A stretch of 64,000 nt of DNA. It comes from an uncultured Rhizobacter sp. (GTDB lineage: Bacteria > Pseudomonadota > Gammaproteobacteria > Burkholderiales > Burkholderiaceae_C). Made by a program: the position numbers and the translations under genes. Below are positions 54,750 through 59,093 of this stretch, piece by piece. Numbering within the stretch: position 1 is the stretch's first letter; the number at the start of each line of letters is the position of its first letter. Location: contig CAXTSS010000003.1 in the NCBI GenBank assembly GCA_964247075.1, positions 206,353-270,352 of the forward strand, given 5' to 3'. The notes under the pieces were generated by a model that searched no databases, had not been told where the DNA came from, and saw only the letters and a program-made list of their open reading frames with translations.

Positions 54750-55760
54750 ATGACTGGAAAGATCGATCGGAACAGAAGGCAGATGCTGGCACTCACCGGC
54801 AAGGCCGGGATCACGACGCTGACAGCGCAAGCCATCGGCGTCAATCTCGGGCTGGTGGGGGTGGCCGCGGCGCAGCGCAAGGTCGAACCCTTCCGCTTCG
54901 CGATCATCAGCGACCCGCACCTCTACAGCGGCAAGGATCACGTCTTCGACAAGCAACTCGAGGACGCCGTCGCGCAGGTGAACGCGCTGGCCAAGCAGCC
55001 CGATTTCGTGCTGGTCACGGGCGATGTCGCGCACCAGGGCGAGGTCGATCAGATGGAGAAGGGCAAGCGCATCCTTTCCGCGCTAAAGGCGCCGCTGCGA
55101 TCGATCCCGGGCGAGCACGACTGGTATCTCGACATGGGCGCCACCTGGCGCAACGCCTTCGGCCCGGAGACCTGGTCGTTCGATCACAAAGGCGTGCACT
55201 TCATCGGCATGAACTCGATCCTGGTGCCGGACTTCTGGACTGCCGCCGGCCTGACGCCCGCGCAACGCCGCGACTGGTTCATGCCGCTGAACAGCCCGGT
55301 GCCGGGCCTGTGGGGCTGCGGCGCCGAGCAGCGCGACTGGCTGAGGAAGGACGTGGCGAAGGTCTCGCCGACGACACCGGTCGTCATCTTCACTCACTCG
55401 CCGTTGTGGGACTACTACCCGCGCTGGAACTTCCAGGTCTCCGACTCGAAGGAGATCCGCCAAATCCTGAGCAAGTTCACCGCCGTCACCGCCTTCCACG
55501 GGCATGTGCATCACACCGTCTACAACAAGATCGGCAACCTCACGTCGATCGGCACGATGAGCACATCGTGGCCATGGCCGTATCCGCCGATCAAGCTGCC
55601 GTACCCGCAGTACCAGCAGAACCGGGCCGACCCCGCCAACACGTCCGACGGCATGGGGAGCGCCGCGATCGACCTCGACGGCGTCGGCAAGGCGTTCGTG
55701 AAGTACCAACCCTTTGCCGAATCGCTGCCGGAGCCGATCAAGAACGGTTTCAAGGCCTAG
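54750..55760 (+). CDS. Tat-exported metallophosphoesterase (calcineurin-like/Icc fold)
   Basis: RBS GGAG, NRRQML twin-Arg signal, SDPH, TGDV, PGEHD, THSP, HGHVH. Confidence 0.88.
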   Translation: MTGKIDRNRRQMLALTGKAGITTLTAQAIGVNLGLVGVAAAQRKVEPFRFAIISDPHLYSGKDHVFDKQLEDAVAQVNALAKQPDFVLVTGDVAHQGEVDQMEKGKRILSALKAPLRSIPGEHDWYLDMGATWRNAFGPETWSFDHKGVHFIGMNSILVPDFWTAAGLTPAQRRDWFMPLNSPVPGLWGCGAEQRDWLRKDVAKVSPTTPVVIFTHSPLWDYYPRWNFQVSDSKEIRQILSKFTAVTAFHGHVHHTVYNKIGNLTSIGTMSTSWPWPYPPIKLPYPQYQQNRADPANTSDGMGSAAIDLDGVGKAFVKYQPFAESLPEPIKNGFKA

Positions 55761-55774
55761 AAGGAGACAAGAAC

Positions 55775-56284
55775 ATGACCAAGCAGACCAGACTCGTTCG
55801 ATGGGTGGCGATGCCACTGGCCACGATCGCGGCCATCGCCACCGTCACGCTCGTGACCGCGCGCGAGCCGTTCACGAGGGACGAACTCAAGGCGATGGAC
55901 GAAAAGCTCACGGCGTCGGCCAAGCGCGGCTACGACATGTGGTACGGCGCGCGGGCCGACATGTCGAGCAACGGCCTGGCCTGCGCCAACTGCCACCCTG
56001 ACGGGGCCGCCACCAACCCGCAGACCTTCCCGAAGTACATGCCGCAAACCGACAAGGTCATGGCCTTTCGCGACATGATCAACTGGTGCATCGAGAACCC
56101 GCAGGTCGGCAAGGCCTTGGACGCCGGCAGCCCCGACATGGTCGCGCTCGAGTCCTACGCCTACTACCTGCACCGTGGCGTGCCGATCGACACCGGCCTG
56201 CAGACGCGCCAGACCGCCGGCCCGACGCCGACGAGCGCTCGGGGCCTCAAGGTCAAGGGGACCGGCATTGGCTTCGACAAGTGA
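55775..56284 (+). CDS. Periplasmic monoheme c cytochrome with SoxA/TsdA-like domain (probable His/Cys ligation)
   Basis: RBS AAGGAG, signal peptide, CANCH, then FPKY...INWC...GSPDMVALESY pattern. Confidence 0.78.
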   Translation: MTKQTRLVRWVAMPLATIAAIATVTLVTAREPFTRDELKAMDEKLTASAKRGYDMWYGARADMSSNGLACANCHPDGAATNPQTFPKYMPQTDKVMAFRDMINWCIENPQVGKALDAGSPDMVALESYAYYLHRGVPIDTGLQTRQTAGPTPTSARGLKVKGTGIGFDK

Positions 56285-56330
56285 GCGCGCGGCGCCGGCG
56301 CACGCGCGCCGGTGGTCGGGTGCCTGCCTG

Positions 56331-56843
56331 GTGCAGACGCTGCTGGCGGGCGCTGTGATGGCCCAGGGCGCACCTGCCCAGCAGACCTGCGTCCCCGGCG
56401 CCTCCAGCCTGCCGTCCTCGCGCTTCCAGGACAACGGCGACGGCACGGTGACGGACGTGGAGTCGAAACTGATGTGGATGCGCTGCGCCAGTGGCCAGCA
56501 GTGGGTCGGCAACCGTTGCGCCGGCAATGCGGCGGCCTACGACTGGGTCGATGCGCAGCACCGGGCAGACCAGATCAGCCAGGACGGCACGGCCTTCTTC
56601 AAGGATTGGCGAGTGCCCACGCTGCGCGATCTGGCCACCATCACCGACCGGGCCTGCAAGAACCCGCGCACGAACCTCTCGGTGTTTCCGGGTACCCCTG
56701 CAGCACCGTTCTGGTCGTCCACGCCGCGCCCGGGCGAGAAGGCCGAGGACCGTGCGTTGGCGCTGAGCTTCGGCGCCGACGGCGTGGTGCTCGCCCGCAA
56801 GGACGAGCGCTTCCACGTGCGACTCGTTCGCACGTCACTCTGA
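56331..56843 (+). CDS. DUF1566 (Lcl C-terminal domain) protein; start uncertain
   Basis: RFQDNGDGTVTD..SKLMWMRC, DWRVPTLRDL, FWSST, VRLVR. Confidence 0.78.
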   Translation: MQTLLAGAVMAQGAPAQQTCVPGASSLPSSRFQDNGDGTVTDVESKLMWMRCASGQQWVGNRCAGNAAAYDWVDAQHRADQISQDGTAFFKDWRVPTLRDLATITDRACKNPRTNLSVFPGTPAAPFWSSTPRPGEKAEDRALALSFGADGVVLARKDERFHVRLVRTSL

Positions 56844-56854
56844 GGAGGATCGGC

Positions 56855-57322: not shown

Positions 57323-57346
57323 AGCCGGACCGGGAGCCGACGCAGC

Positions 57347-57658
57347 ATGTCCGAGCCGATCCGCATTCGAGCTCGTGTCCAACAGGGCGTGGCCGACGTC
57401 ACGATCCTGATGCCGCACCCCATGGAGACGGGCCTGCGGCAGGACGACGCCGGCGACCTCGTGCCTGCGCACTTCATCACCGACGTGTCGGTCACGCTCG
57501 GCGAGCGCAGCGTGTTCTCGGCACGCATGAGCTTTGCCGTCGCGCGCGATCCGTTGCTGAAGTTCCGCTTCGCCGGGGCTGCCAGCGGCCAGCGCCTTCG
57601 CGTGGCGTGGACCGACAGCCTCGGCGAGGCGCGGATCGACGAAATCGTCATCGCCTGA
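57347..57658 (+). CDS. soxZ: SoxZ-family sulfur carrier subunit
   Basis: IRIRA, LMPHPMETGLRQD..G.LVPAHFI, DPLLKFRF, WTDSLG; no signal peptide. Confidence 0.9.
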   Translation: MSEPIRIRARVQQGVADVTILMPHPMETGLRQDDAGDLVPAHFITDVSVTLGERSVFSARMSFAVARDPLLKFRFAGAASGQRLRVAWTDSLGEARIDEIVIA

Positions 57659-57705
57659 ACCCGCTCACCCGACCCGAAACCATCGACCTGCAACGGAGCA
57701 CCGCC

Positions 57706-58032
57706 ATGCACGCCCACAACCGACGTGTCTTCATGCTGCACGCGATCGCCGGAACGACCGCGCTGGCCGCGCACGGCAGCGCGGGCGCGCAGGACGCGAC
57801 CGATCCCGTCAAGGAGACCGACCCCTATCCCAAGTCGATGGGCTTTCGCCTGAACACCGCCAATGTGGATCAGGCCAAGTTTCCGCGCCACGAGGTGTCG
57901 CAGAAGTGCAGCGAATGCCAGCTCTTCAGCGGCAAGCCGGGTCAACCCACCGGCACCTGCTCGTTCTTCAAGCGCGTGGTGCCGATCGATGGCTGGTGCC
58001 GCAACTTCAAGCCGCGCAAGGCTGCCGCGTGA
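57706..58032 (+). CDS. High-potential iron-sulfur protein (HiPIP)
   Basis: RBS GGAG, NRRVFM Tat signal, CSECQLF...GTCSFF...GWC four-Cys pattern. Confidence 0.9.
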   Translation: MHAHNRRVFMLHAIAGTTALAAHGSAGAQDATDPVKETDPYPKSMGFRLNTANVDQAKFPRHEVSQKCSECQLFSGKPGQPTGTCSFFKRVVPIDGWCRNFKPRKAAA

Positions 58033-59093
58033 AGCAGCGGGTTCGGGCGCCGGGTCGGTGGGCCGCTGCGCTGCTCGCGGTCGGGCTGCTGCTCGCGGGT
58101 TGTGAGCGCCCGGCCTCCGACCAGCGCGGCCCGCGCGGGACGTCTCAGATCCAGCTGCGCAAGCCGGCGGCCGTGGCCGCGCTGGCCGAGATAAACCGCA
58201 TTCCTCCCGCGGAGGAAGCCGCCGACCCGGAGGCGCCGCCGGCGAGCGAGGTGTTCGTCAATGTGAAGGTGCTCAACGACCTGAGCGCCACCGAGTTCTC
58301 GCGCGTGATGCAGGCCTTCTCCACCTGGGTGGCGCCGGAGCAGGGCTGCGACTACTGCCACAACCCGGACAAGCTGGAGTCCGACGAGAAGTACCCGAAG
58401 GTGGTGGCGCGCCGCATGATCCAGATGACCCGCCACATCAACAGCGACTGGAAGTCGCACGTGGCCGAGACCGGCGTGACCTGCTGGACCTGCCACCGTG
58501 GCCAGGCCGTGCCCAGCGGGGACTGGTTCAACGGATCCGATGCGCCGGTGGCCCCGTCGAGCTTCTCGCGCAGCCGCGATGGCAAGAACGCGCCGGCGCC
58601 AGTCGCAGGCGGGTCGGCGCTGCCGAGCGATCCCCTGTCGCAGTACCTGACGACGGGGGGCTCGGAGATCCGGGTCCAGTCGGGGGCGGCCCTGCGTTCG
58701 CGCGACGTGCCGCCCGTCTCGGTCAAGAACGCCGAGTGGACGTACGCGCTCATGATGTACATGTCGGGCTCGCTCGGCGTCAACTGCACCTACTGCCACA
58801 ACACCCGGGCCTTGGCGAGCTGGCAGGAGAGCTCACCGCAGCGCGTGACCGCCTGGCACGGCATTCGGATGGTGCGCGACCTCAACACCGCCTTCCTCAC
58901 ACCGCTCGAGCCGCTGTTCCCGGCGAACCGGCTGGGGCCGCACGGTGATGGTCCCAAGGTCGGCTGTGCGACCTGCCACAAGGGCACCTTCAAGCCGCTG
59001 AACGGCGTCAGTCCGCTGGTCGACTACCTGGCGCTCGCCGGCGTGGGCAAGGTGCCGCCTGGCGTGCCGTCGGAGCCGCCGGCCAAGCGCTGA
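58029..59093 (+). CDS. pufC: Tetraheme photosynthetic reaction-centre cytochrome c subunit homologue (lipoprotein)
   Basis: Lipobox LAGC-ERP, QRGPRGT, four heme motifs CDYCH/CWTCH/CTYCH/CATCH, RVTAWHGIRMVRDLN, RLGPHGD. Confidence 0.92.
   Translation: MKQRVRAPGRWAAALLAVGLLLAGCERPASDQRGPRGTSQIQLRKPAAVAALAEINRIPPAEEAADPEAPPASEVFVNVKVLNDLSATEFSRVMQAFSTWVAPEQGCDYCHNPDKLESDEKYPKVVARRMIQMTRHINSDWKSHVAETGVTCWTCHRGQAVPSGDWFNGSDAPVAPSSFSRSRDGKNAPAPVAGGSALPSDPLSQYLTTGGSEIRVQSGAALRSRDVPPVSVKNAEWTYALMMYMSGSLGVNCTYCHNTRALASWQESSPQRVTAWHGIRMVRDLNTAFLTPLEPLFPANRLGPHGDGPKVGCATCHKGTFKPLNGVSPLVDYLALAGVGKVPPGVPSEPPAKR

Follow-up and report, generated by a model that had tools for sequence, protein, structure and literature searches.

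The seven-gene block

The window, the whole 64-kb stretch of DNA analysed here, carries seven tightly packed, co-oriented genes on the + strand at 54750-59093 (Table 1), as the initial annotation had proposed and as gene calls and matches to Pfam and NCBIfam profiles confirmed. In order, these genes encode a Tat-exported metallophosphoesterase (MPE), a SoxA/TsdA-like monohaem cytochrome, an Lcl_C/DUF1566 protein, SoxY, SoxZ, a HiPIP and a PufC-family lipoprotein. Neighbouring genes are separated by 11-47 nt or overlap, and no terminator-like site was found on the + strand within the block. The GTGA overlap described for the HiPIP/pufC junction is present, with the pufC GTG at 58029-31 and the HiPIP TGA at 58030-32. 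A neighbourhood comparison, suggested in the same annotation, showed that the identical gene order recurs in 20 to 21 of 80 related loci from GTDB genomes (Burkholderiales and Chromatiaceae). Because the flanking genes at these loci differ, the arrangement is not a product of chance. The block is real, conserved and operon-like. A search of RNA runs returned none containing its sequence.

Table 1. Position, strand and supporting evidence for features at the locus
Feature	Position	Strand	Evidence
LysR-family regulator, divergent	53338..54330	-	HTH_1 + LysR_substrate
Intergenic control region, 419 nt	54331..54749		alignment + promoter prediction
Candidate short leader ORF, 40 codons	54486..54608	+	AGGAGA precedes
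Tat-exported MPE, 'GEHD' subfamily, 336 aa (core component 1)	54750..55760	+	Pfam Metallophos
SoxA/TsdA-like monohaem c-type cytochrome, 169 aa (core component 2)	55775..56284	+	PF21342
Secreted Lcl_C/DUF1566-domain protein	56268..56843 (start inferred)	+	PF07603, 95 bits
SoxY-type carrier, Tat signal	56855..57322	+	TIGR04488, 128.3 vs cut-off 125
SoxZ, SoxY partner, no signal peptide	57347..57658	+	TIGR04490, 97.5 vs 76; PF08770
HiPIP, Tat signal	57706..58032	+	PF01355, 52 bits; four Cys
PufC-family tetrahaem cytochrome lipoprotein	58029..59093	+	NF040706, 420 vs cut-off 150

The products look exported, as had been noted. Twin-arginine motifs are readable in the MPE (RNRRQML), SoxY (GRRRWLK) and HiPIP (NRRVFML), the cytochrome has a Sec-type signal and PufC a lipobox (LLAGC), and SoxZ lacks a signal. 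Other details of the annotation were corrected. The cytochrome gene starts at 55775, and no good start codon for the DUF1566 gene follows its stop; multi-locus analysis places the most likely start of the latter at TTG 56268, which overlaps the cytochrome gene by 17 nt and yields an RR-containing signal peptide, GTG 56331 being the next candidate. The C-terminus of SoxY reads VIVGGCA and not GGCGG, so that its Cys is penultimate. This SoxY can be aligned to that of Chlorobium as far as GGC. The cluster-linked SoxY proteins end in GGC or SGC plus one residue in 24 of 24 cases, and the rhizobial neighbour SoxY ends in NGCL. No soxX, soxB, soxCD or pufLM was seen in the 64-kb window, in agreement with the initial annotation for the sox genes, in a survey of ORFs by eye with Pfam searches of neighbouring genes rather than an exhaustive HMM scan.

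The metallophosphoesterase-cytochrome pair and its partners

The MPE matched Pfam Metallophos with an E value of 1e-15, and its database names are generic only. D55xH57, G91D92, G121-E122-H123-D124, H216 and G251H252xH254 are invariant in 72 of 72 homologues. Its nearest sequences and folds are those of class III cyclic-nucleotide phosphodiesterases, GpdQ and Rv0805 (18% identity to the solved GpdQ and Rv0805 structures). Like these enzymes, the MPE keeps metal-binding motifs I, II, IV and V, whereas motif III is GEHD in every member instead of GNHD, or GNH(D/E) across the superfamily; judged from these alignments, the metal site is altered. The MPE also differs from them in its Tat export, its strict linkage to a cytochrome gene and its conserved Trp/Pro-rich C-terminal region. 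Many invariant Trp residues, including a WPWPYP motif, lie in regions poorly modelled by AlphaFold, and the structure model is of moderate confidence (pLDDT 67). The CpdA score was far below its cut-off (37.6 vs 225). A SoxB-like identity was considered and rejected, as there was no SoxB HMM match and kinship is at the superfamily level only.

The cytochrome contains a single haem motif, CANCH, and scored 44.5 bits against PF21342 (SoxA-TsdA_cyt-c; cut-off 27). C70xxC73H74, K87, M101, C105 and Y128 are invariant in 81 sequences. Cys105, in a MINWC motif, aligns with the haem-ligand Cys of SoxA (MINAC, RGC) and of TsdA (GDC), and the residue four positions ahead of it is an invariant Met, as opposed to Arg in TsdA. 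The protein is not a true SoxA: it scored just 47.7 against TIGR04484 (SoxA; cut-off 110), and it is closer to the N-terminal, non-catalytic haem domain of dihaem SoxA (27.7 bits) than to the catalytic domain (14.4 bits).

The genes for the MPE and cytochrome are adjacent and co-oriented in 79 of the 80 related loci, which points to this pair as the unit of function and, as far as synteny can tell, the functional core. The pair is found in Burkholderiales, Chromatiales, rhizobia, Cupriavidus, Gallionella, Acidobacteriota, Myxococcota, Planctomycetota, Desulfobacterota and Rokubacteria, and at least 458 GTDB species encode the cytochrome. Strains that carry it include S. meliloti Rm41 and SM11, Cupriavidus necator A5-1 and Thiohalocapsa halophila DSM 6210. 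Its partners vary by lineage: a CCP/MauG-like dihaem enzyme, a cupredoxin with a cbb3-type oxidase, or Lcl_C with or without SoxYZ plus HiPIP-PufC. SoxYZ is therefore optional. It is inserted in the operon at 24 loci (Betaproteobacteria and Chromatiaceae); 6 loci retain HiPIP-PufC without it, and none of the 48 loci in which the core pair stands alone or with Lcl_C has it. Lcl_C is present in 45 of the 80 loci, all Beta- or Gammaproteobacteria.

Sulfur-related genes recur around the pair. SoxYZ lies in or beside the unit in Beta-, Gamma- and Alphaproteobacteria; a convergent soxYZ-cytochrome-fccB operon adjoins it on rhizobial plasmids, where SCO copper-chaperone genes also adjoin the clusters; and Comamonadaceae MAGs and Alphaproteobacteria have FccAB next to the cluster. 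The MPE-cytochrome-cbb3 operon also contains a gene of the TauE/SafE family, which is annotated as a sulfite exporter family, in Phyllobacterium, Rhizobium, Cupriavidus and an Alphaproteobacterial MAG. The juxtaposition of FccAB and SoxYZ with the unit on Sinorhizobium and Phyllobacterium plasmids and in Comamonadaceae MAGs recalls the flavocytochrome c/SoxEF proteins of rhizobial 'soxYZEF-like' clusters, although the window has no FccAB. For Sinorhizobium strains carrying such a cluster, a comparative study lists no soxXAB and describes the soxYZEF-like genes only, leaving the neighbouring MPE and cytochrome unmentioned (PMC4053727). These two proteins are thus candidates for the missing activities.

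A possible route of sulfur oxidation and its alternatives

We tentatively read the operon as a periplasmic dehydrogenase of a reduced inorganic sulfur compound, likeliest thiosulfate or sulfite, with a two-protein core non-orthologous to SoxXA/SoxB, and we consider this nearly an even prospect. From gene content, export signals, conserved residues and synteny, we infer the following substrate, catalytic steps and direction of electron flow. The cytochrome, through its SoxA/TsdA-type haem and invariant Cys105, would oxidatively couple the sulfur substrate to a thiol and yield two electrons. Where SoxYZ is present this thiol would be the penultimate Cys of the SoxY arm, and elsewhere the cytochrome's own Cys or a second substrate molecule. 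The MPE, with its dinuclear GEHD site, would then hydrolyse the terminal sulfonate of the thiosulfonate to sulfate, the same chemistry as that of SoxB on a different scaffold. Electrons would pass to HiPIP and the membrane-anchored PufC-family cytochrome in this window, and in other lineages to the cupredoxin and cbb3-type oxidase or to the CCP-like dihaem enzyme. All of these alternative partners are electron acceptors, which fits the pair being an electron source.

Several observations favour the sulfur reading: the haem-domain family of the cytochrome with an invariant Cys at the haem-ligand position, the near-constant pairing and wide distribution of the core genes, the shared Cys plus one-residue C-terminus of SoxY proteins in or beside the operon, the Sinorhizobium clusters, and the compactness of an operon with no internal terminator. 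To our knowledge, all SoxA/TsdA haem-domain proteins characterised so far act on thiosulfate or on sulfur bound to a carrier. The occurrence of SoxYZ, FccAB and TauE/SafE neighbours in independent contexts appears to strengthen the link. Other observations argue against it, namely the many loci without SoxYZ, the superfamily-level kinship of the MPE to SoxB, the resemblance of the cytochrome to the non-catalytic domain of SoxA and its Met in place of the TsdA Arg, the moderate confidence of the MPE model, and the breadth of TauE/SafE as an anion-transporter family; CCP/MauG/MbnH partners and catalases point to peroxide or maturation roles.

Compared with the Sox system (SoxXA, SoxYZ, SoxB, SoxCD), the block likewise encodes together a periplasmic SoxY/SoxZ carrier with a Cys near the C-terminus, a SoxA/TsdA-family cytochrome with a conserved Cys and a Tat-exported dinuclear hydrolase of the metallophosphoesterase superfamily. 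In contrast, it lacks SoxX and SoxCD, its cytochrome is a 169-aa monohaem protein, its hydrolase is of the GpdQ/Rv0805 type and not the 5'-nucleotidase type of SoxB, its SoxY ends in GGC plus one residue instead of GGCGG, and in most lineages the core pair does without SoxYZ. A second parallel is Allochromatium vinosum TsdA/TsdB, which shares the haem-domain family and the aligned Cys. TsdA of this organism passes electrons to HiPIP, the likely acceptor encoded here. However, TsdA is dihaem and works alone, whereas the single haem domain here is always paired with an MPE. The minimal Sox-analogous pathway proposed in the initial annotation is therefore upheld in its conservation, predicted export, SoxA/TsdA-like cytochrome with Cys and sulfur-gene contexts, but SoxYZ is optional, the MPE is not SoxB-like, the cytochrome is not SoxA, and a pure 'mini-Sox' reading does not predict the CCP/MauG-like or cbb3-type partners of other lineages. 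The model gains support and is plausible, though unproven. The combination had been thought undescribed, and we found no description of it, or of the MPE and cytochrome pair, in the literature searched. This pair spans hundreds of bacterial species, and if the sulfur reading is true it represents a new route for inorganic sulfur oxidation.

The HiPIP gene (top PDB match of its product, 1hlq) lies immediately 5' of pufC, and PufC has four CxxCH motifs and a lipobox and shares ~50% identity along its whole length with the reaction-centre cytochromes in solved RC-LH1 structures (PDB). In these features the two resemble the PufC and HiPIP of Rubrivivax, Rhodoferax and Chromatiaceae. Unlike reaction-centre PufC, however, it is encoded outside a pufBALMC operon; neither pufLM nor bch genes were seen in the 64-kb window or next to PufC at any of ~27 loci, and its Chromatiaceae homologue is fused to ~1000 aa of coiled coil and an OmpA domain. 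PufC is thus probably a paralogue outside the puf operon and not a reaction-centre subunit. If the two proteins were instead the true electron donors of a photosynthetic reaction centre, in a phototroph with pufC outside the puf operon, the module would feed electrons to photo-oxidised bacteriochlorophyll. We regard this as unlikely, even though PufC passes its equivalog model, purple Betaproteobacteria usually rely on HiPIP to reduce PufC, the carriers include Chromatiaceae and genomes labelled Rhodoferax or Rubrivivax, and a TspO gene lies upstream; Chromatiaceae such as A. vinosum already carry pufC inside the puf operon, and six loci have no PufC near the cluster. This possibility bears on nothing but the terminal acceptor and does not conflict with the sulfur-oxidation model.

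For the pair itself, electrons might run in reverse, from HiPIP and the PufC-like cytochrome through the monohaem cytochrome to the MPE, where a dinuclear site with the additional carboxylate of Glu122 would reduce H2O2 or a related periplasmic oxidant in the manner of rubrerythrin or Mn-catalase. The invariant Glu-for-Asn replacement at the metal site is in keeping with this, as are the CCP/MauG/MbnH-superfamily gene directly upstream on the same strand in 26 loci, the catalase-ankyrin-catalase genes adjoining the cluster in four Gammaproteobacterial loci, and the Fur-family and ECF sigma/anti-sigma genes 5' of some Acidobacterial clusters. Yet SoxYZ, FccAB and TauE would go unexplained, the catalase genes lie on the opposite strand and are confined to closely related genomes, and we know of no SoxA/TsdA-family haem characterised as a peroxidase. 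Moreover, the cbb3-type oxidase in the same operon is already an electron sink, which argues that the pair supplies electrons, and we judge oxidant reduction decidedly unlikely. The Fur-family and ECF regulators also suit a periplasmic Fe(II) or Mn(II) oxidase, in which metal would be oxidised at or near the MPE site and electrons would leave through the cytochrome for HiPIP and PufC, or for a cupredoxin and oxidase. In iron oxidisers, PioC or Iro take up electrons and the rus operon combines a cupredoxin with an oxidase; the HiPIP-tetrahaem and cupredoxin-haem-copper oxidase contexts parallel such clusters. Gallionella and the Rhizobacter/Methylibium/Rubrivivax group are among the carriers of the pair, and the exported MPE is predicted to be metal-loaded. 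Metal oxidation is nevertheless very unlikely in our estimation: it gives SoxYZ, FccAB and TauE no role, neither a porin nor an outer-membrane cytochrome consistently accompanies the pair among the loci compared, and a Cys-ligated SoxA/TsdA-type haem is expected to have a low potential, ill-suited to Mn(II). Finally, the best NCBIfam matches of the upstream dihaem enzyme, both sub-cut-off, are the protein-modifying MauG and MbnH, and such an enzyme could mature the MPE into a dehydrogenase, possibly of an organic substrate, bearing for example a Trp-derived cofactor. On this view the SoxYZ-like proteins would serve as accessory carriers, like those of the 'quinoprotein dehydrogenase-associated SoxYZ-like carrier' family. 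The invariant, poorly modelled Trp residues and the SCO genes of rhizobial clusters agree with this proposal, but we hold it highly improbable, given that the pair has no MauG-like companion gene in the Burkholderiales, Chromatiaceae, Cupriavidus or rhizobial contexts and that the complete, invariant set of dinuclear metal ligands points to metal-based catalysis.

The upstream region

The divergent LysR gene is present at nearly all Burkholderiales-type loci. Its top NCBIfam match was CbbR, and this identity was ruled out since it scored 222 bits against a cut-off of 450. The intergenic region gave no match in Rfam. A Shine-Dalgarno sequence and ATG occupy the position equivalent to the leader ORF in many Burkholderiales loci; the peptides are poorly conserved, and the ORF may be spurious. 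At 2.7 kb upstream is a TspO gene. On the - strand, the site at 54365-54337 resembles a sigma-70 promoter and is predicted to serve lysR, and alignment with five relatives showed strong conservation of the lysR-proximal intergenic block, CTGATATTAG...GTCAAAA..TTCAACTT.

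The seven-gene block and its distribution

Family scans of positions 54750-59093 placed seven genes on the plus strand (see the table), beginning with a Tat-exported metallophosphoesterase (MPE) and a SoxA/TsdA-like monohaem cytochrome, referred to here as the core pair, and followed by a gene for a DUF1566-domain (Lcl) protein. The block is flanked by housekeeping or unrelated genes (rluB-like, TspO, GGDEF-EAL sensor, alpha/beta hydrolase, mutL), and a survey of the ORFs in the 64-kb window, made by eye and with Pfam on neighbouring genes, revealed no further sox, fcc, puf or bch genes.

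Coordinates and family assignments of the block genes and the divergent regulator gene (HMM values are bit scores against model cut-offs)
Feature	Position	Strand	Properties
LysR-family gene	53338-54330	divergent from block	419-nt intergenic region between lysR and MPE
MPE	54750-55760	+	336 aa; Pfam Metallophos; twin-arginine motif RNRRQML
Monohaem c-type cytochrome	55775-56284	+	SoxA-TsdA_cyt-c domain, 44.5 bits vs 27; one CANCH
Lcl_C/DUF1566 protein	ends 56843	+	PF07603, 95 bits
SoxY	56855-57322	+	TIGR04488, 128.3 vs 125; RRRWLK
SoxZ	57347-57658	+	TIGR04490, 97.5 vs 76; without signal peptide
HiPIP	57706-58032	+	PF01355; NRRVFM; four Cys
PufC-family tetrahaem cytochrome	58029-59093	+	NF040706, 420 vs 150; four CxxCH; lipobox LLAGC

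The initial annotation had described an overlap of the HiPIP stop and the pufC start as GTGA, which the sequence bears out; the gaps between the remaining block genes are 11-47 nt, and no terminator-like sites were found on the coding strand inside the block. The DUF1566 gene departs from that annotation, as there is no usable start codon after the cytochrome stop. It probably starts at a TTG (56268) that lies 17 nt within the cytochrome gene and has AAGGGGA ahead of it, because the RR-containing signal peptide of all homologues requires that start; the next in-frame start would give a signal peptide that lacks a charged N-region. The resulting 17-nt overlap (56268-56284) suggests that translation of the two genes is coupled. 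No Rfam matches were found in the operon or its leader, and a search of RNA runs returned none that contained the sequence. The lysR-MPE intergenic region also contains a 40-codon ORF (54486-54608, plus strand) with AGGAGA ahead of it. A Shine-Dalgarno sequence and ATG occur at the equivalent position in many Burkholderiales loci, and the peptides are poorly conserved; this ORF may be a translated leader or uORF, or merely conserved regulatory DNA.

A scan of GTDB, with one genome per species, identified at least 458 relatives of the cytochrome; the 80 best loci were retrieved (L numbers denote retrieved loci) and compared with the proteins of the window. In 79 of these 80 loci, the MPE gene immediately precedes the cytochrome gene, and the remaining locus ends at a contig edge. 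The gene-neighbourhood search, which had been proposed as a check on the conservation of the block, recovered all seven genes in 20 of the 80 loci and in one additional, incomplete locus, with flanking genes that vary from locus to locus. In four of the 20 (L002, L003, L008 and L011), the PufC gene is located upstream of the LysR gene and not behind HiPIP. Shorter arrangements consist of MPE-cytochrome-Lcl-HiPIP-PufC without SoxYZ (6 of 80), MPE-cytochrome-Lcl-SoxYZ only (3), MPE-cytochrome-Lcl (14) and the MPE-cytochrome pair alone (34). The seven-gene type is found in Burkholderiales MAGs labelled Rhizobacter, Methylibium, Rubrivivax, Rhodoferax and Polaromonas, and also in the Chromatiaceae (Thiohalocapsa halophila DSM 6210, Halochromatium). 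Because the gene order recurs and the flanks vary, the block is a self-contained, selected unit, the invariant core of which is the MPE and the cytochrome. The seven-gene block is real, conserved and uncharacterised.

Other lineages provide the core pair with other partners. A dihaem gene of the CCP/MauG/MbnH superfamily lies directly upstream of the pair, on the same strand, in Acidobacteriota, Myxococcota and Planctomycetota, including Brocadiales, and likewise in Desulfobacterota and on a Methylocystis plasmid; in some of these loci it is preceded by Fur-family or ECF sigma/anti-sigma genes. The order cupredoxin-CarboxypepD_reg, MPE, cytochrome, CcoN-like, CcoO/P-like (cbb3-type) occurs in Cupriavidus, Phyllobacterium, a Rokubacteria MAG and an Alphaproteobacterial MAG, and a Gallionella MAG (L038) has a fused oxidase gene upstream of the pair. 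A TauE/SafE-family gene is found downstream in Phyllobacterium, Rhizobium gallicum, the Alphaproteobacterial MAG and Cupriavidus. In Comamonadaceae MAGs, the locus comprises ccmGHI, a membrane-anchored PufC homologue, fccA, fccB, a divergent lysR and MPE-cytochrome-Lcl-SoxY-SoxZ-HiPIP. Four related Gammaproteobacterial MAGs (L042, L044, L045 and L047) carry two catalase genes with an ankyrin-repeat gene between them; these follow Lcl_C on the other strand, convergent with MPE-cytochrome-Lcl, and a LysR gene is close by. Further conserved flanking genes of distant loci, such as those for carbamoyl-phosphate synthase, MreB, M16 peptidases and sensor kinases, were considered as partners and rejected as local synteny. 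In some Gammaproteobacteria (L033, L035, L036 and L037), the gene just downstream of Lcl_C (e.g., L035:9155-10504) encodes a 450-aa secreted protein whose C-terminal domain is multihaem and cytochrome c554-like and whose N-terminal domain has no Pfam match.

On pSymA of Sinorhizobium meliloti Rm41, SM11 and BL225C and on a Phyllobacterium plasmid, the unit containing the pair abuts a convergent soxY-soxZ-cytochrome c-fccB operon; none of the matches to this region in the plasmid collection came from strain 1021. A comparison of 48 Sinorhizobium genomes reported "soxYZEF-like" genes in seven S. meliloti and two S. fredii strains, with soxXAB unlisted (PMC4053727). The accessory megaplasmid region itself (S. 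meliloti pSymA, L082:5320-11313; Phyllobacterium plasmid, L084 and L086) consists of SCO, cupredoxin-CarboxypepD_reg, MPE and cytochrome genes, with or without a cbb3-type oxidase, TauE/SafE and a P-type ATPase.

Relationship of the products to known families

By HMM, the MPE belongs to the calcineurin-like metallophosphoesterase superfamily, and it deviates at one metal ligand. Motifs DxH, GD, H and GHxH are invariant among 72 homologues, and motif III is GEHD in all 72, where the superfamily has GNH(D/E), such that a carboxylate replaces the Asn metal ligand. The C-terminal part is conserved and Trp/Pro-rich, including WPWPYP. Sequence and fold searches of the PDB returned GpdQ, Rv0805 and purple acid phosphatase, and not SoxB; the closest solved relatives, GpdQ and Rv0805, are ~18% identical, and the single-chain structure model was of moderate quality (pLDDT 67). 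SoxB is a dimanganese sulfate thiohydrolase of the 5'-nucleotidase type, and the MPE falls outside this family: it had no SoxB family match at E <= 0.01, and kinship with SoxB was rejected on this basis and on that of its nearest folds. Most databases name the protein CpdA. Identity with the CpdA/Icc 3',5'-cAMP phosphodiesterase was also rejected (NF008359, 37.6 against a cut-off of 225), and its Tat signal predicts a periplasmic location, unlike that of the cytoplasmic CpdA.

Among 81 sequences, the cytochrome conserves CxxCH, K87, R99 (95%), M101, N103-W104-C105 and Y128, and in the alignment Cys105 takes the place of the Cys that ligates haem in TsdA and in both SoxA domains. The better match is to the non-catalytic haem domain at the N-terminus of dihaem SoxA (FPKY...MINxC...PDM). 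The protein is distinct from SoxXA, scoring 47.7 against the cut-off of 110 on the SoxA equivalog model TIGR04484 with only model positions 7-103 covered, and no second small cytochrome (SoxX) is encoded in the operon. It also differs from TsdA, in which a His/Cys haem domain is followed by a His/Lys-Met domain, in having a single CxxCH and a single PF21342 domain in 169 aa. The family is small, with 359 clusters at 50% identity among 1.8 billion representatives. No MPE-cytochrome or cytochrome-SoxY fusions were seen among these 359 representative clusters; longer members have only low-complexity N-terminal linkers or tandem haem domains.

SoxZ agrees with its canonical counterpart, and soxZ begins 24 nt behind soxY. 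SoxY barely passes its family model, although it lacks the GGCGG swinging arm of canonical SoxY; the sequence ends in GGCA, a point of difference from the initial annotation. All 24 SoxY homologues linked to the cluster end in GGC or SGC plus one residue, and the rhizobial SoxY beside the pair ends in NGCL, so that the Cys is penultimate there too.

The HiPIP assignment holds (52.4 against a cut-off of 22 on the Pfam model; PDB 1hlq, E 3e-12), with its twin-arginine sequence and cysteines readable. The PufC-family protein matches the PufC model over its full length (PF02276, 408 bits), with the haem motifs CDYCH, CWTCH, CTYCH and CATCH. Full-length comparison with the reaction-centre cytochromes in solved complexes gives an identity of ~50%. 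Its close homologues in the protein collection all come from metagenomes or MAGs. Unlike reaction-centre PufC, it is not encoded with pufL and pufM: no pufLM were seen in the window, nor beside pufC in any related locus. In purple sulfur bacteria, such as A. vinosum, pufC lies inside the puf operon. In four Chromatiaceae loci (L029, L030, L031 and L032, from Thiohalocapsa and Halochromatium), the PufC-family lipoprotein domain forms the N-terminus of a protein of ~1260-1400 aa and is fused to ~1000 aa of repetitive coiled coil; the protein that was read to its end (L029:11049-15239) finishes in an OmpA-like peptidoglycan-binding domain, an architecture for which no published description was found. 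Because of the missing pufLM neighbours, the fusion form in Chromatiaceae and the location of pufC in the puf operon of A. vinosum, the block PufC looks like a paralogue that would serve as a membrane-tethered electron hub rather than as a reaction-centre subunit. The pufC of the Comamonadaceae loci was rejected as part of pufBALMC, as it sits after ccmGHI and before fccAB.

Possible functions of the core pair

The partners that vary are all electron acceptors or carriers, so that the pair is read most simply as a dehydrogenase that donates electrons and whose exit route is set by the lineage. Of the candidate substrates, a reduced sulfur compound has the best support from sequence and gene context: the haem domain is of the SoxA/TsdA family and keeps its Cys, linkage of the pair to SoxYZ with the distinctive Cys-plus-one C-terminus extends over three proteobacterial classes and linkage to FccAB over two, and two classes have a TauE/SafE-family transporter within the operon. 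SoxXA makes a thiosulfonate on a thiol and SoxB releases sulfate; by analogy, the cytochrome would carry out the first of these steps and the MPE, as a dinuclear hydrolase, the second. This cytochrome/hydrolase chemistry was part of the minimal Sox-analogous pathway that the initial annotation proposed for the seven genes. As a proposal it is coherent. The pathway as a whole is partly supported and is better framed around the two core genes, to which particular lineages add SoxYZ, HiPIP and the PufC-like cytochrome as accessories. If true, the chemistry would explain rhizobial soxYZEF-like genes that are unaccompanied by soxXAB.

Several findings stand against a sulfur model: SoxYZ is dispensable, the MPE is not a relative of SoxB, and the SoxA domain that the cytochrome resembles is the non-catalytic one. 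Other readings fit the CCP/MauG-like, Fur, ECF and catalase contexts as well, namely that the pair functions in peroxide reduction or in metal oxidation, or that the MPE is a cofactor enzyme matured by a MauG-like protein. With these points set against the linkage to SoxYZ, FccAB and TauE/SafE, we consider the chances that the pair is a sulfur-oxidation system to be slightly short of even. We propose more tentatively, as a reading that we think is somewhat less likely still, that the GEHD-type MPE and the Cys-bearing cytochrome constitute a new periplasmic enzyme that oxidises sulfite and/or thiosulfate to sulfate, independently of molybdenum, SoxXA and SoxB, in at least 458 species of eight or more phyla, with an acceptor chosen by the host (CCP-like, cbb3-type oxidase, or HiPIP plus PufC-like cytochrome).

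If the sulfur-oxidation model holds, the pair would represent a widespread, non-orthologous alternative to SoxXA/SoxB and to molybdenum sulfite dehydrogenases, one that genome-based predictions of sulfur oxidation currently miss because the database labels are "cAMP phosphodiesterase" for the MPE and "hypothetical" for the cytochrome. The model would also account for the orphan soxYZ and soxYZEF-like clusters of rhizobia and freshwater Burkholderiales, provide an example of a metallophosphoesterase fold that has an altered metal site and is put to redox-linked use, and give a role to PufC-family cytochromes or paralogues encoded apart from reaction-centre genes. Even with another substrate, the strict pairing and the modular choice of acceptor define a new, testable periplasmic enzyme family. 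Neither a module of MPE and SoxA-like cytochrome nor the operon was found described in the full-text literature searched; in papers that seemed promising, the term "metallophosphoesterase" either was missing or belonged to an unrelated context.

Other features of the window

A gene of the TspO/MBR family, at 51577-52101 on the minus strand, is separated by 2.7 kb from the operon that lies downstream. In some purple bacteria, regulation of photosynthesis genes is linked to TspO, but non-phototrophs have it too. Further upstream, the plus-strand gene at 46271-47656 encodes a secreted YncE-like beta-propeller fused to a C-terminal cupredoxin of the plastocyanin/azurin type. It is followed by genes for a phosphonate-binding-type periplasmic protein (47763-48713) and a HAMP-PAS-GGDEF-EAL sensor (48710-51172), the start of the latter overlapping the gene ahead. 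The sole RNA gene that Rfam identified in the window is a tmRNA at 17930-18301 on the plus strand, with the tag peptide ANDQTYALAA. The ORFs directly after it have an atypically low third-position GC content and could mark an integrated element.
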